Assembly (NCBI GenBank): GCA_963705105.1
Contig: CAVPIW010000007.1
Span: 32,001-96,000, forward strand
DNA length: 64,000 bases
Reading direction: 5' to 3'
DNA from: an uncultured Nitrospiraceae bacterium
Lineage (GTDB): Bacteria > Nitrospirota > Thermodesulfovibrionia > Thermodesulfovibrionales > Dissulfurispiraceae
Shown here: positions 11,957 through 17,788 of the stretch, one piece after another
Layout of the letters: the number at the start of each line of letters is the position of its first letter
Numbering within the stretch: position 1 is the first letter of the stretch
The notes under the pieces: model-generated
Seen by the model: only the letters and a program-made list of their open reading frames with translations
Told to the model about the DNA's origin: nothing
The model's database searches: none
Made by a program: the position numbers and the translations under genes

Positions 11957-13294
11957 TTAACGCTGTTTCAGGAAGACGGGGATCCCGTTTGCTTCCCTCG
12001 GCCCGACGGTGATCTTCCAGCCCGGCAGCTTCTCCTCGATGGCGCCGCTCATCAGGGCGACATAACCGGGTATGATAAGCTCCCTGTGACTCACCGTGTT
12101 CTCGACGCCGCTCTCCTGCATGAAAGCGGCGATCTTGGCTGCGGTGAACTTGCCTGCAGCCCAGGACGTCAGGACCGAAAGTCCCTCCGTGTCCATGACG
12201 GCCAGCCAGCTCGGCACCTTGCTGTTCTCGATCTCGCCCGACACGATGAAGTAGGTGAGAGAGAAGTTCGAGGTGATCATGAGCGGCGAATCGGCAGTCG
12301 CCTCGCCGATCTTGTAGATGTTCTGCTTCACCTGCATCGGCACCTGCGGGTCCGTGTAGATGTTCTGCCTCAGGGCGAAGAGGGCGACGTTCTTCCACTT
12401 CTCGATGCTGCTCAGGACGATGACGGAGGCGTACTTGGCGACGCCGAGGGTGGCGATGAGGGCTTCAACCATCGAATCTCCCCTCTGGGCAAAGCTGATG
12501 GTGGGGAAGCCGACGGACTTCACGCCCTTCTTGACCGCCGCACGCCTGATGAAGGTGTTGTCACGCAGCATGTCCTTAGCGGTCCTGGCCCCGGAATCGA
12601 GCACCATATCGTTGACCCCGAGTCCCTTGATCTTGTCGGTGAGGTCCGTGAGTTCATCGAGGTTTTGCGCAACGACGCCGAGGGAGGCGCCGTAGGTCTT
12701 CGCCAGGTTCGCCATGGCGTCGGCATTGGCGGCATTGGCGCCATACAGGAGAGGCTTCTTGTCCTTGACGACCTTGAGTCCCGCCTCTGCTGCGGCGGCG
12801 TCGGTCGTCCCGAGGATGACAGCCACGTCGGGCGCCGTCGCGGCGACGACCTTCACGGCGTTCTCGAACTTTCCGGCATCACCGGAGGCGTTATTGACGA
12901 AAACGGCGTCGATGCGGAGCATCTGGCCGACCCTCTCCATCTCGGAGGCGGCGACGTCCTGCGTTTTCTGCTTTATCTCATCATCGCTCAGGGTGTCCGC
13001 AATCTCGAGCGCAAAGGCGCAGGGGTTGACGAACTTCTTCTCATGCCTGAAGAGGACCGTTTCCTCTCCGACCTTGAAGGCCTTGTCGCCGGCGCCGACG
13101 GTGATCGCCCTGATCGGCGGAGCGGACGCTTCACCGAGGATCTTCTTTGCCTCTTCGGACACGTCCGGGCAGGCATCGAGGGCCACCTGGTTCGACGCGA
13201 GTTTCATCGCGAAGGCGAGACAGGTGGGAAAACCGCATTTCTTACAGTTTGTTTTCGGGAGCAGCTTGAATATCTCAACTCCAGTCAGAGCCAT
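11957..13294 (-). CDS. acsC: Corrinoid iron-sulfur protein large subunit
   Basis: LPKTNCKKCGFPTCLAFA 4Fe-4S motif, TSNFSLTY, GLSVLTSWAAGKF, GPREA. Confidence 0.96.
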   Translation of the reverse strand: MALTGVEIFKLLPKTNCKKCGFPTCLAFAMKLASNQVALDACPDVSEEAKKILGEASAPPIRAITVGAGDKAFKVGEETVLFRHEKKFVNPCAFALEIADTLSDDEIKQKTQDVAASEMERVGQMLRIDAVFVNNASGDAGKFENAVKVVAATAPDVAVILGTTDAAAAEAGLKVVKDKKPLLYGANAANADAMANLAKTYGASLGVVAQNLDELTDLTDKIKGLGVNDMVLDSGARTAKDMLRDNTFIRRAAVKKGVKSVGFPTISFAQRGDSMVEALIATLGVAKYASVIVLSSIEKWKNVALFALRQNIYTDPQVPMQVKQNIYKIGEATADSPLMITSNFSLTYFIVSGEIENSKVPSWLAVMDTEGLSVLTSWAAGKFTAAKIAAFMQESGVENTVSHRELIIPGYVALMSGAIEEKLPGWKITVGPREANGIPVFLKQR

Positions 13295-13306
13295 ACGTAT
13301 CCTCCT

Positions 13307-14245
13307 TTACATTAACTCGTCGATGAATTTGTCTACTGCCGCTGCGGCTTCGGGGTGTCTCATGATGAGGAGTTCGGCGCCGGCGATCATAAGGGACGCC
13401 GCAGTGACCGCCTCCCAGAGAACGGCGCGCTCCTTGAGTGCGCCCAGTTGCGGGAGATCGGCCTCGGGGGCCTGGGCTTCCTTCGTCTTCCACGTGAACA
13501 TGCCCACATCGGCGACCATGGGTGTCATCATGGTGGCGTCGTTCTGGGCGAGCGCGGTCAGGCGGATCCTCTCCATGACCGAATAGGTGTATTCAAGGCC
13601 GTAGCCGAGGGCCGAGCACATCGGGTCGGCGATGAGCCGCTCCTTGTCGAAGCCCATCTGGGTGATGAGGATATTGAGCTGCTTCGAGAGGTTGATGTCC
13701 AGCTCCGACATGGCGATCAGTTTGTGGTCGTGCGCCATTGCCGCAGCCGCTATGGTCTTGTAGTTGGCTTCCTGGGCCTTTCCGATGATGAAATTCTTGC
13801 CCTTCGCCGCTTCTGCAGCGGCGACGAGTACCTGGGCGTCCTTCTCCGCGTTGTTGCTGCCGAGGATGATGAGCGGGACGGACACGGCGTTCATGACGTC
13901 CGTGACGGTCTTCGCCGCATCGGCGGGGGAGCGGTTTTCCCTGTCGGGATGGGTGCCGATCAGCCTGAGGCAGATCATCTTCGCGCCCAGGGTGTCCTGG
14001 CAGTATTTCGCCCATGTGACGGGGTCGCCGGAAACGCTCGCATACACTGCCTTTATCGTATCCGCCCAGTCTTCCGGCGGAACATCCTGGACCTCAAAGG
14101 CTATGACGGGTCTGTTCGGGAAGTTCCCCTCAAAGGAGTTGAACGGCAGGGAATTTTCCCCCCCGATGACGACCGGTGAATCCGTTCCTACTGCGAGTTG
14201 GTAGACTTTGCCCGCGTACGTGTCTTTCGGTGCAGTAAAAGCCAT
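13307..14245 (-). CDS. acsD: Corrinoid iron-sulfur protein small subunit
   Basis: GGENSLPF..FEG, DINLSKQLN, LGYGLEYTYSVMERIR, MRHP. Confidence 0.95.
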   Translation of the reverse strand: MAFTAPKDTYAGKVYQLAVGTDSPVVIGGENSLPFNSFEGNFPNRPVIAFEVQDVPPEDWADTIKAVYASVSGDPVTWAKYCQDTLGAKMICLRLIGTHPDRENRSPADAAKTVTDVMNAVSVPLIILGSNNAEKDAQVLVAAAEAAKGKNFIIGKAQEANYKTIAAAAMAHDHKLIAMSELDINLSKQLNILITQMGFDKERLIADPMCSALGYGLEYTYSVMERIRLTALAQNDATMMTPMVADVGMFTWKTKEAQAPEADLPQLGALKERAVLWEAVTAASLMIAGAELLIMRHPEAAAAVDKFIDELM

Positions 14246-14254
14246 ATATTCCTC

Positions 14255-15037
14255 CTACATTTCGAGATATGAATGTGCATAGAGGGTTTTGCCCATTATG
14301 ACATCGATTGTTTTCGCCGTTTCAGCCACCTCGTGGGAGTCGGCTATCGCCGCTGTCAGGCCCTCGTACTGGAGAAGGGCAAGGTAGTACTTGTTAAGGA
14401 TCGGCCTCAGTGCCTTGGGGCACCCGTTGGAGATGTTGCTCAGTCCGACGACGGTCTTCATCGGGGGGTCGTTCAGGTCCTGGAACATCCGGATGGTCTG
14501 GAGGACTTTGATCGCCTGGTCCTGCGTCGTGGCGATCTGCAGGACGAGGGGATCGAGGTAGAGGTCCTCGACGGGCATACCGTACTCCATGGCCCTCCCC
14601 ATGATCTCGGCCGCGATTCCGGACCTTTCCTCTGCATCGGCTGGCAGTCCGCCCTTGCCGACGGTGAGTCCGATACAGAGCGAGTTGTACTTCGCCGCAA
14701 GCTCAAGGATGGGGAATCTCTCGGGGTCATTGGAGGTTGAATTTATCAGCGGCCTCCCCCACTCACTGTTATGCACTTTGAGACCCGCCTCGATGGCCGA
14801 GGCGTTCGTCGTATCGAGGCATACGGGAAGGGACACCACTTCCTGTATCGTGGTGACCATCCATTCCATGAGGGCCTCTCCACCGCTCTCCGCAGGGCCG
14901 ATGTTTGCATCGATCATGCCCGACCCCTCTTTCCACTGTCTGATCGCGATTTCCTGAATCGGTCCCTTGTCCCGGTTCATCATAGCTTCACGGACCCGTT
15001 TCGCTATGACACTCAACTTCTCGCCAATGATCAGCAT
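14255..15037 (-). CDS. acsE: Methyltetrahydrofolate:corrinoid protein methyltransferase
   Basis: MLIIGE.., D.N.G, LDT, INS, DPLV, GLSNISNG pterin-binding barrel; position in the acs cluster. Confidence 0.93.
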   Translation of the reverse strand: MLIIGEKLSVIAKRVREAMMNRDKGPIQEIAIRQWKEGSGMIDANIGPAESGGEALMEWMVTTIQEVVSLPVCLDTTNASAIEAGLKVHNSEWGRPLINSTSNDPERFPILELAAKYNSLCIGLTVGKGGLPADAEERSGIAAEIMGRAMEYGMPVEDLYLDPLVLQIATTQDQAIKVLQTIRMFQDLNDPPMKTVVGLSNISNGCPKALRPILNKYYLALLQYEGLTAAIADSHEVAETAKTIDVIMGKTLYAHSYLEM

Positions 15038-15210
15038 ATTCCTCTCCTTTCTTCTATGTTAGGATAACTGCCAAGCGCGAGACATACCTCGGTCAAGACG
15101 GAAACAAATATATCACATCATGATTTATAAGTAAAGTTTATTTTTTTAAGCAGTGCATAATAAAAAATTATAGGTCCCCCGGTCCACATTCCCGCCTTCA
15201 GAGAGCCCTT

Positions 15211-15978
15211 TTACGGGATCTGCAGTCCGTCCAGAATGTTGAAATACGCCTTAACCGACGGGCTATCTTCAGGCAGATGGGCGACAGGCTTGCCCTCCAG
15301 GTCGTACCTGAAAACCATTTCATCCTGGGGCACTACACCGCCGACGGTCAGGCCGTATTGCTCGGCGACTTTTGTCAGCACGACGGCATCCTCATCTCCA
15401 TGCACCCGGTTGATGATGACGATGCGCCTGTCGATGTCGAGCTGGATCTCGTCCACGAGTTCATTGATTCTCTTGCACGTGAGCACGCCCTTTGCCGTCG
15501 GATCGCTCACGATGAGGAGGATGTCCACCTTGTGCGTCGTCCTCCTGCTCAGGTGCTCCATGCCCGCCTCATTGTCGATGACGACATAGGGGTATTTCTC
15601 GGAGAGGATGTCCGTGTACTTCCTGATGATGTTGTTCGCAACGCAGTAGCAGCCGGAGCCTTCGGGCCTGCCCATGACCATCAGATCGATGCCCGTCGAC
15701 TCGATGATCGACTGCTGTACCTGGTAATCGAAATACTCTTCCGCCGACATCCCGCCGGGACGTTCGCCCTGGCGCACCTTGATGACGGACTCCTCCCTCA
15801 TCCTCCCGATCGTCGTGTCAACGGCGATGCCGAGGGCCTCGTTGAGGCATGAGTTCGAGTCCGCATCGACGGCGAGGACAGGCCCTTTCCTCTTCGTCGT
15901 CAGGTATTTGATGGTCAGTCCCGCGAGACTCGTCTTTCCCGTTCCCCCCTTGCCTGCAAAGGCGATCGTAAATGCCAT
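15211..15978 (-). CDS. cooC: Ni-insertion ATPase CooC/AcsF
   Basis: GKGGTGKT, DAD, GCYC, DNEAGMEHLSR. Confidence 0.92.
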   Translation of the reverse strand: MAFTIAFAGKGGTGKTSLAGLTIKYLTTKRKGPVLAVDADSNSCLNEALGIAVDTTIGRMREESVIKVRQGERPGGMSAEEYFDYQVQQSIIESTGIDLMVMGRPEGSGCYCVANNIIRKYTDILSEKYPYVVIDNEAGMEHLSRRTTHKVDILLIVSDPTAKGVLTCKRINELVDEIQLDIDRRIVIINRVHGDEDAVVLTKVAEQYGLTVGGVVPQDEMVFRYDLEGKPVAHLPEDSPSVKAYFNILDGLQIP

Positions 15979-16954: not shown

Positions 16955-17168
16955 ACCTTTCAGTTGCATCGAAAGGCGGGGCGAAGCGCCTCAAAGCCCT
17001 GCTGAAGGCGACGATGAGCCTCGCCAGGTTCGTCTTTCATGATTCCACTCTCTGTGCGATGGACCATTAGTCTGAAGCCTTGTCTTCTGCAACTATTAAG
17101 GTGTCGCCACATCAAGGTTTTCGGCACATACACCCCGCCTTTCGATCTGGCGCATGCAACAATCAGGT
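16955..17168 (-). mobile_element. 214-bp MITE, copy 2 (TG/TG flanks)
   Basis: Reverse complement aligns over its whole length with 39408-39621. Confidence 0.85.
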
Positions 17169-17183
17169 TGACTATAAAAATAA

Positions 17184-17207
17184 AAGGCGCTGCCGTTGCA
17201 GCGCCTT
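17184..17207 (-). terminator. Intrinsic terminator of the ribosomal (alpha) operon
   Basis: Stem aaggcgctgc/gcagcgcctt, 4-nt loop, followed on the minus strand by a U-rich tail. Confidence 0.85.
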
Positions 17208-17237
17208 CCGTTCACGGGGAAATCGTTGTCGTATGCC

Positions 17238-17372
17238 CTATTTGCACTTTTTCCGGTCTCCCGAACCGGGTTGGGGAACGGCTCAGGTCGGTACGCCGAG
17301 TTTCGGAAGGATGACGAACTGCAGGAGCACCCAGACGATCGCGATACCGGCACCGATCAGGATCTCGCTCAT
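17238..17372 (-). CDS. Unannotated small membrane protein; 29 aa to UGA (17283-17285) or 44 aa if UGA is read as Sec
   Basis: MSEILIGAGIAIVWVLLQFVILPKLGVPT-(UGA)-AVPQPGSGDRKKCK-TAG; ATGA overlap with rplQ stop, AAGGAG upstream, host-like codons, lies before the terminator. Confidence 0.65.
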
Positions 17373-17788
17373 GCCTTCTTGCTCTCCTTTTTGCCCTCTT
17401 TCTTCTTCTCCTGCTGCGATGGCCTGACGGTCTCGTAATCGATGAATTCGATGACGGCCATCGGCGCCCTGTCCTTCAGTCTCTGCCGGGTCTGAACGAT
17501 TCTCAGGTATCCCCCGTTTCTGTCGACAAAGCGGGGGGCTATATCGGAAAAGAGTTTTGCCACAACGGCGCGGTTCGGTATGTACGAAAAGACCATCCTC
17601 TTTGCGTGCAGGTCCCCTCTCTTTCCGAAGGTGACGAGCTTTTCCGCTATTCCCCTGATCGCTTTTGCCCGTGCAAGGGTCGTCTCTATGCGCTGATACT
17701 CGAAAAGCGAGGCCACAAGACCCCGCAGGAGCGCTTTTCTCTGATTTGCCGTCCTGTTGAAGTGACGGGTCCCCACATTATGACGCAT
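17369..17788 (-). CDS. rplQ: 50S ribosomal protein L17
   Basis: MRH.., IETTLARAK, RNGGYLRI, DRAPMAVIE. Confidence 0.97.
   Translation of the reverse strand: MRHNVGTRHFNRTANQRKALLRGLVASLFEYQRIETTLARAKAIRGIAEKLVTFGKRGDLHAKRMVFSYIPNRAVVAKLFSDIAPRFVDRNGGYLRIVQTRQRLKDRAPMAVIEFIDYETVRPSQQEKKKEGKKESKKA

Follow-up and report, generated by a model that had tools for sequence, protein, structure and literature searches.

Introduction

Bacterial selenoprotein genes decoded by SelB carry their SECIS element inside the reading frame, as a small, G-containing loop 16-37 nt downstream of an in-frame UGA codon (PMC13188914, in the part of that source consulted). Cys orthologues and restriction to selB-positive genomes are further traits of such genes. 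The small gene described herein, which follows the ribosomal protein gene rplQ in an uncultured Nitrospiraceae bacterium, resembles them in all of these respects; it differs in that its 44 residues contain a single membrane helix and lack a folded catalytic domain, and its motif reads T-U-x4-C or else T-U with the Cys farther away. Several catalogued small selenoproteins (KCU-star/DUF466, the dual-CXXC small protein, UXX-star, TsoA/C/X/Y, and the deep-Sep hypothetical proteins DG/DW/DF) are likewise short and missed by gene callers; Sec/Cys pairing revealed them, often within clusters of redox genes, and their NCBIfam models gave no match to the query or to 20 relatives at E up to 1. DUF6132 (PF19628) offers another resemblance, a membrane helix followed by C-x-S-G-x-C (a C-x4-C motif), and directly adjoins 12 of the 29 Cys-form loci described below; profile-profile comparison with it gave a probability of 1.4% and does not support shared ancestry.

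The build also recalls that of SELENOK and SELENOS, which, in the sections of PMC10650576 consulted, combine a single N-terminal helix with a cytoplasmic tail that is disordered and abounds in Gly, Pro, and basic residues, SELENOS having in addition a Sec-Cys pair about 13-14 residues apart. Here, the 14 residues after Sec include four Gly/Pro and four Lys/Arg. The small gene differs from both in being bacterial, much shorter, and reversed in order, with Sec next to the membrane and Cys penultimate; whereas SELENOK/SELENOS-like proteins are described in the same sections as carrying Sec second or third from the C-terminus (PMC10650576), the Sec proposed here is 15th from the end, and Pfam gave no SELENOK/SELENOS match for the small protein. 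The likeness is one of build, not membership.

With U scanned as C, no model of NCBIfam 20.0 or Pfam scored above its curated cut-off, and a 119-family selenoprotein table published in 2026 contained no matching entry and no single-helix micro-selenoprotein by name (PMC13188914). A full-text literature search returned no description of the family; five family motifs and UxxxxC gave unrelated matches, and Haft and Tolstoy 2025 or Deng et al. 2026 could contain it. The micro-selenoprotein family is absent from the catalogues and models checked because gene callers stop at residue 29; its decoding is standard and its build is unusual.

The Gene at the End of the Ribosomal Operon

The window, namely the whole 64,000-nt stretch of DNA that was analysed, contains the following features, all on the minus strand.

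17369..17788, minus strand: rplQ (ribosomal protein L17), the last ribosomal gene of the operon, with TIGR00059 and PF01196 matches
17384..17389, minus strand: AAGGAG within the 3' end of rplQ, Shine-Dalgarno-like and presumably used as such
17238..17372, minus strand: small gene, 44 residues with Sec at position 30, or 29 residues if the UGA terminates
17307..17363, minus strand: single hydrophobic helix, residues about 4-22, hydropathy 2.71
17286..17321, minus strand: signature Q18-x4-P23-[KR]-x-G26-x2-T29, right before Sec
17283..17285, minus strand: in-frame UGA, the proposed Sec codon (codon 30), conserved as TGA
17253..17269, minus strand: SECIS-like hairpin, a 6-bp stem with a CGGGA loop (17263-17259), recognised by comparison with relatives
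17244..17246, minus strand: Cys43, the penultimate residue and candidate partner of Sec30
17238..17240, minus strand: TAG, the true stop under Sec decoding
17172..17209, minus strand: intrinsic terminator-like hairpin and T-tract at the operon end, z = -2.9

The anatomy set out in the original prediction stands: the ATG (17372-17370) overlaps the TGA of rplQ as ATGA, AAGGAG lies upstream (17389-17384) across a long, 11-nt spacer, the frame runs past the UGA to a UAG (29 codons, TGA, 14 codons, then TAG at 17240-17238), and the ORF precedes the operon terminator, whose stem alone occupies 17209-17182. A paralogue of the small gene was sought in the same genome and none was found. Further along the same strand, at window positions 11957-15978, lies a run of genes that we take to belong to the acetyl-CoA pathway, encoding corrinoid iron-sulfur protein subunits, a methyltransferase, and a CooC-type ATPase. 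Many short partial matches to RNA-library contigs from other organisms, some of which join one end to the other, fall in the gap (window 16955-17143) that separates the terminator from a HAD phosphatase gene. A pair of similar segments is located in this gap, near 16964-16990 and 17132-17150; it is possibly a small repeated element, and Rfam returned nothing above threshold, this gap included.

The single transmembrane helix that had been proposed is predicted with confidence, the AlphaFold model placing a helix at residues 2-21 (pLDDT 90/88) and being confident for the helix only, not for the remainder. About five Lys/Arg follow residue 18, and the N-terminus is slightly acidic on average. 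Membrane proteins generally follow the positive-inside rule; the basic residues clustered behind the helix thus suggest a cytoplasmic tail, and the predicted topology is N-out/C-in. Within the signature that precedes Sec, P23 and G26 are invariant in three of three alignments, and Q18 and T29 are each invariant in two of three. A sequence search of the PDB yielded a chance-like match to a glutathione transferase helix alone (E 0.01). Membership in the ATP synthase subunit b/b' N-terminus was rejected: of 20 relatives, two matched its model, at 11-14 bits where the cut-offs stand at 183-186, and the long coiled-coil stalk is lacking.

Conservation of the UGA Codon and the Frame Beyond It

Searches with the 44-residue product gave matches in 57 of the 68 genomes of the taxonomic family, and an alignment search of the phylum matched 96 of 401 genomes, nearly all from one order (three of the 96 were noise). 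Codon 30 is TGA in all 118 loci of the lineage (118 genomes), and the terminal stop of the same loci is mixed (TAA 48, TGA 38, TAG 31, and one off the contig end). When the GTDB collection was scanned with any TAN or TGN allowed at codon 30, TGA stood in 119/119 true matches listed; TAA and TAG were absent from the true homologues listed, the lone TAG match (L199) being non-homologous. Among the matches listed, record titles named Desulfobacterota, Nitrospirota, Acidobacteriota, Planctomycetota, Myxococcota, Chloroflexota, Eisenbacteria, and a spirochaete. In a sample of 251 Acidobacteriota genomes, all 81 matches hold one TGA; when 30 of these loci were fetched, its position was verified in 26, and the motif regular expression failed to catch the other four. 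Excluded from these counts were a degenerate second copy (L070), noise (L079 and L162-L165), the non-homologous L199, and two library proteins that are repeat proteins (P0004 and P0075); for L108, the anchor of the UGA was moved by one codon.

Against 1.84 billion protein representatives, a profile search returned 927 clusters (50% identity) at E up to 0.001. Of the best 150 of the 927, 149 were parsed, and 121 of these end right before position 30, in keeping with the expectation that gene callers would miss the full ORF; the others have Cys (16), Trp (7), Gly (2), Leu (1), or Ser (1) there, and one is a repeat protein. As letters at position 30 can be gene-caller artefacts, the Cys forms were checked at the DNA level, where TGC or TGT stands at codon 30 in 29 metagenome loci (24 distinct); CxxxxC occurs in 26 of these 29, and CCC variants also occur. 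A word-indexed protein search found two 29-residue near-copies and nothing more, and the ESM Atlas holds an unnamed 123-member cluster at 0.91. Contigs from three RNA libraries of two studies (X2, X3, and X4) match the gene over most or all of its length, with about 98% identity and no listed difference at the TGA; such contigs cannot show strand, level, or transcription, and the RNA libraries were consequently not counted as support. The two outcomes that had been named as checks, a conserved TGA with hairpin and Cys at the same position in homologues, were both found (118/118 and 29 Cys loci). Comparison shows the gene to be conserved and its UGA to behave as a sense codon under selection.

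Some copies stand apart. In one genome (G045), the place behind rplQ is taken by a degenerate copy with TGT at codon 30, an early stop, and traces of the hairpin lying out of frame, while an intact TGA copy with its own ribosome-binding site stands elsewhere (L069); the short Cys ending of the degenerate copy recurs in library protein P0043. Near-identical members also occur in bins titled Flavobacterium psychrophilum (L244) and Cyanobacteria (L250), a placement that is possibly misbinning.

Beyond the UGA, at least 13 codons follow in 118/118 relatives, and the tail contains Cys in frame in 110 of the 118, whereas reading it in the two shifted frames gives 17 and 19. Cys is at position 43 in 41 of the 42 family members of 44 residues (TGC 23, TGT 18). 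When a Lys-x-Cys motif was searched for at the nucleotide level without regard to frame, 64/64 cases proved to be in frame, at five different distances, so that length changes in threes. In the wider set, the first Cys lies at +5 in 80 of the 119 matches listed, and some Cys is present in 115; in the lineage of the small gene, it lies at +8 (25 cases) or at +13 to +15 (79 cases). The frame after the UGA is, by its pattern of conservation, a coding one. In 8/118 loci, no Cys follows downstream, and elsewhere its distance differs from locus to locus; a fixed active site would not be expected to behave in this way.

The SECIS-Like Hairpin

The hairpin begins 13 nt after the UGA, and its loop begins 19 nt after it. 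Folded alone, it is no better than chance (z = 0.68 and -0.28), other base pairs make up the predicted minimum-energy fold, and the significance of the hairpin comes only by comparison with relatives. The register conserved among them is an unbulged stem of 5-6 bp closed by a 5-nt C-G-[G/U]-G-N loop. In 51 close relatives, the stem 18-22:28-32 is paired in 83.5% of cells with 17 double changes, a level reached by 0/500 shuffles, and with the loop as anchor 432 of 525 stem cells are paired against 319 +/- 8 with shuffled arms (105 distinct sequences); since kin are not independent, these statistics are not probabilities. The hairpin of the original prediction holds in its coordinates (17269-17253) and its distance of 13 nt from the UGA; its bulged U was discarded, that register pairing in 65.7% of cells versus 83.5% for the plain stem. 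A register shifted by one base was likewise rejected (66.3% versus 83.5%), and RNAalifold found no consensus fold in the close family.

Counting a SECIS-type hairpin when its energy was -2 kcal/mol or better, it was present in 97/118 TGA forms of the lineage (leaving 21/118 that lack it by the same test) and in 113/119 of the wider matches listed, against 8/22 Cys forms, 10/118 upstream stretches, and 15%, 30%, and 25% of sets after synonymous randomisation. By these counts, the hairpin is under selection beyond that on the amino acids, and this selection is relaxed once the UGA is lost. In the part consulted of their source, bacterial SECIS criteria call for a loop of 3-9 nt located 16-37 nt after the UGA, a stem of 4-16 bp, a G in the first two loop positions, and a free energy of -7.5 kcal/mol or below (PMC13188914). 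Applied by hand as the published criteria of bSECISearch, they agree with the 6-bp stem, the CGGGA loop, its G, and the distance of 19 nt; the free energy of the hairpin alone is -7.0 versus the published -7.5 kcal/mol, and the selD hairpins of five genomes, that of the same bacterium included, reach -7.1 to -7.4 in the same test with the loop at 17 nt. A stretch of 39-50 nt folds at -10.3, into a structure other than the hairpin. Among the TGA ends of long ORFs in the same genome, 22 of 1503 score as well as the hairpin of the small gene.

Selenium Machinery and Co-Occurrence

Sec machinery in the genome had been named as a check, and selA, selB, selC (tRNA-Sec), and selD were all found: in this genome, which is 99% complete, each scores above its cut-off, selD has an in-frame TGA of its own, and tRNA-Sec carries the anticodon TCA. 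In the Acidobacteriota sample (251 genomes), the ORF is present in 79 of 194 selB-positive genomes (41%) versus 1 of 57 selB-negative genomes (G717); three unpublished genomes (G628, G531, and G506) are among the 115 selB-positive genomes without it, and their omission changes nothing. A selB match is absent in 7 of 50 hand-picked carriers (50 of the 119 listed), genomes that come with no completeness figures; the Flavobacterium psychrophilum-titled bin (L244) is one of the carriers lacking it. Within the taxonomic family, 5 of 57 carriers gave no selA match; four of these five have selB and selD, and four have tRNA-Sec. The gene is dispensable in genus g7 (0/8 genomes, with selA in 7/8) and in taxonomic family f5 (0/14); five re-examined genomes of these groups have no copy after rplQ or elsewhere.

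Several observations on the machinery itself deserve mention. Five of the ten genomes of genus g10 have no selA match (G040, G038, G045, G046, and G013). Among them, G040 (98% complete, nine contigs) possesses selB, tRNA-Sec, and a TGA-containing selD, and in it neither two selA models nor a search for the SepSecS replacement found anything; its selA neighbourhood is rearranged, and in G038 the selA region falls between contigs. The gap may be one of assembly, a real loss, or a replacement. Another genome, titled Phycisphaerales (G439), has three selB matches on different contigs, reflecting either duplication or a mixed bin. Finally, the genome under study encodes a 96-nt tRNA-Cys with a GCA anticodon (C10:176596-176691, locus L014; also L084 and L085) that at 55.9 bits exceeds the tRNA-Sec cut-off, in addition to an ordinary tRNA-Cys. 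A selC*-type tRNA-Cys has reportedly been described by Mukai and colleagues, and the 96-nt form presumably resembles it.

Genomic Context in and Beyond the Lineage

In the lineage, rplQ lies upstream in 102 of the 118 loci, mostly overlapping the small gene; at the remaining 16, we take the upstream gene to be secG-like in seven, DsbC-like in three, and FKBP-like in one. Homologues from the wide scan that also stand behind rplQ come from Nitrospirota/Nitrospirae records (L168, L173, L201, L222, and L227). The link to rplQ is lineage-specific, not a property of the family, and the co-expression with ribosomal genes that had been proposed accordingly fits the anatomy (102/118) but would hold for this lineage only.

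Elsewhere, the commonest neighbours at 138 loci are thioredoxin-fold proteins (31), FmdB-type zinc ribbons (29), and YgaP-like helices (24), followed by AcrB-type pumps (22), ArsR (19), DUF302 (15), rhodaneses (13), and DUF6132 (12); immediate neighbours include CcdA-thioredoxin fusions, disulfide reductase-rhodanese proteins, and metallo-lactamase-rhodanese proteins (75 of 201 flanking ORFs scanned). Seven families (thioredoxin-fold, FmdB-type zinc ribbon, YgaP-like, ArsR, DUF302, rhodanese, and DUF6132) were then sought within about 3 kb. At least one was near 38/74 wide (non-Nitrospirota), 22/29 Cys-form, and 18/30 Acidobacteriota loci, against a background of 54/1372 windows drawn from the genome under study only, a comparison that is partly circular, the families having been picked from the same loci, kin being non-independent (the Cys loci include close kin), one genome having been counted twice (L178 and L327), and the background being a single genome. 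Given the circular choice of families and the kinship, the neighbourhood is a lead on function, not proof. None of the seven families lies near the locus in the window. In one group of Cys-form loci (L289, L291, L294, L299, and related ones), the order thioredoxin, DUF6132, small gene, and CcdA/thioredoxin fusion forms a compact operon whose junctions overlap or measure 2-3 nt.

Weighing of Alternative Explanations

That the UGA is an ordinary stop, ending a 29-residue membrane peptide before an incidental hairpin, agrees with the 121 of 149 parsed database entries (from the best 150) that end there, with a hairpin that is unremarkable alone, and with the existence of carriers lacking a selA match; it is nonetheless very improbable, given true homologues that, among those listed, never place TAA or TAG at codon 30 and freely mix the next stop, as well as the Cys orthologues, the conserved in-frame tail, and the selB dependence. 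Still harder to credit is a suppressor tRNA, or an altered genetic code, that would make the UGA encode Cys or Trp. In its favour stand the unusual tRNA-Sec-like tRNA-Cys of the genome and the W or G at position 30 of nine library entries (149 parsed of the best 150). Against it, that tRNA has a GCA anticodon, TGA serves as the stop of rplQ and of at least 1503 long ORFs in the same genome, and the hairpin and selB link point to SelB. The W and G letters most simply reflect gene-caller translation under other tables. A selenium-sensing switch, in which the peptide is secondary and read-through of the UGA governs translation of the next gene, gains something from the long ORFs that start on the read-through stop in 10/77 wider loci versus 3/77 on the UGA. 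It is nevertheless improbable: a terminator follows the gene here and in relatives and so leaves no downstream gene to regulate, Cys orthologues retain the protein without the UGA, and the protein motif is strongly conserved.

Other explanations accept the selenoprotein and differ in its role. Binding of a soft metal or metalloid (Cu, Hg, As, or Zn) by the Sec/Cys pair at the membrane, for efflux or sensing, would suit the flexible Cys spacing and the CCC variants, as well as neighbours such as ArsR and CsoR-type repressors, ArsP-HMA, ZnuA, AcrB-type pumps, and zinc-ribbon proteins. This role is possible yet unlikely, as neighbours of the thioredoxin-fold, CcdA-thioredoxin, rhodanese, and disulfide-reductase kinds occur no less often and, in the part consulted of PMC9774590, ArsR-family members are described as also sensing reactive sulfur. 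More doubtful is a role, confined to the lineage of the small gene, in export or quality control of membrane proteins like that of eukaryotic SELENOS/SELENOK, which would explain the position in a secY-containing ribosomal operon or behind secG. Such a role draws on the 102/118 loci with rplQ upstream, on the seven of the other 16 whose upstream gene looks secG-like by sequence appearance, and on the build itself, in which a single helix, a tail of Gly, Pro, and basic residues, and a gap of 13 between Sec and Cys resemble SELENOS Cys174-Sec188 (PMC10650576, in the sections consulted). However, the rplQ/secG link is absent outside the lineage, the Sec/Cys order is reversed relative to SELENOS, small genes can come to lie behind strong operons for expression alone, and close relatives do without the gene.

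Proposed Mechanism

The membrane-anchored Sec/Cys mini-protein of the original prediction is supported by the conservation of the TGA, the hairpin, the Cys orthologues, and the Sec machinery: the locus very probably encodes a 44-residue single-pass membrane selenoprotein. Comparative sequence evidence makes SelB-dependent decoding of the UGA as Sec nearly certain; a thiol/persulfide relay, as the function, is slightly more likely than not. By established Sec biology, ribosomes finishing rplQ would restart at the ATGA overlap, and SelB with Sec-tRNA would bind the CGGGA loop 19 nt downstream of the UGA, leading to insertion of Sec30; without selenium, a 29-residue stub would result. The helix would serve as anchor and, judging from charge and model, leave the C-terminal tail in the cytoplasm, so that Sec30 would sit at the membrane face, just after the conserved P-K-x-G turn. 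As a Cys is always nearby, and in view of the gene neighbours, Sec30 is proposed to act as the reactive nucleophile and the downstream Cys to resolve it as a selenenyl-sulfide, this Cys lying five residues on in most phyla and eight or 13-15 in the lineage of the small gene. The result would be a membrane-tethered two-electron redox or persulfide relay, reset probably by thioredoxin-type proteins. In this lineage, the gene would have left a redox cluster and become fixed behind housekeeping genes, giving constitutive expression.

Implications

A 44-residue Sec/Cys peptide lends itself to direct synthesis and assay, and cultured carriers are on record by title (Geomobilimonas luticola and Geobacter sp. 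OR-1). The family also supplies more than 100 SECIS hairpins that covary in nature, together with controls of the Cys form, for refining bacterial SECIS models. A large, multi-phylum selenoprotein family is added, counting 927 clusters and reaching 41% of the selB-positive genomes in one phylum sample. It is a doubtful further idea that the lineage moved a micro-selenoprotein from a redox cluster into its core ribosome/translocon transcription units, behind rplQ or secG, and respaced its Sec-Cys pair from x4 to x12-14, yielding a counterpart of SELENOS/SELENOK that would act, as a selenenyl-sulfide handle facing the cytoplasm, on membrane proteins at insertion or quality control; if true, selenium would be part of housekeeping membrane biogenesis in these bacteria.
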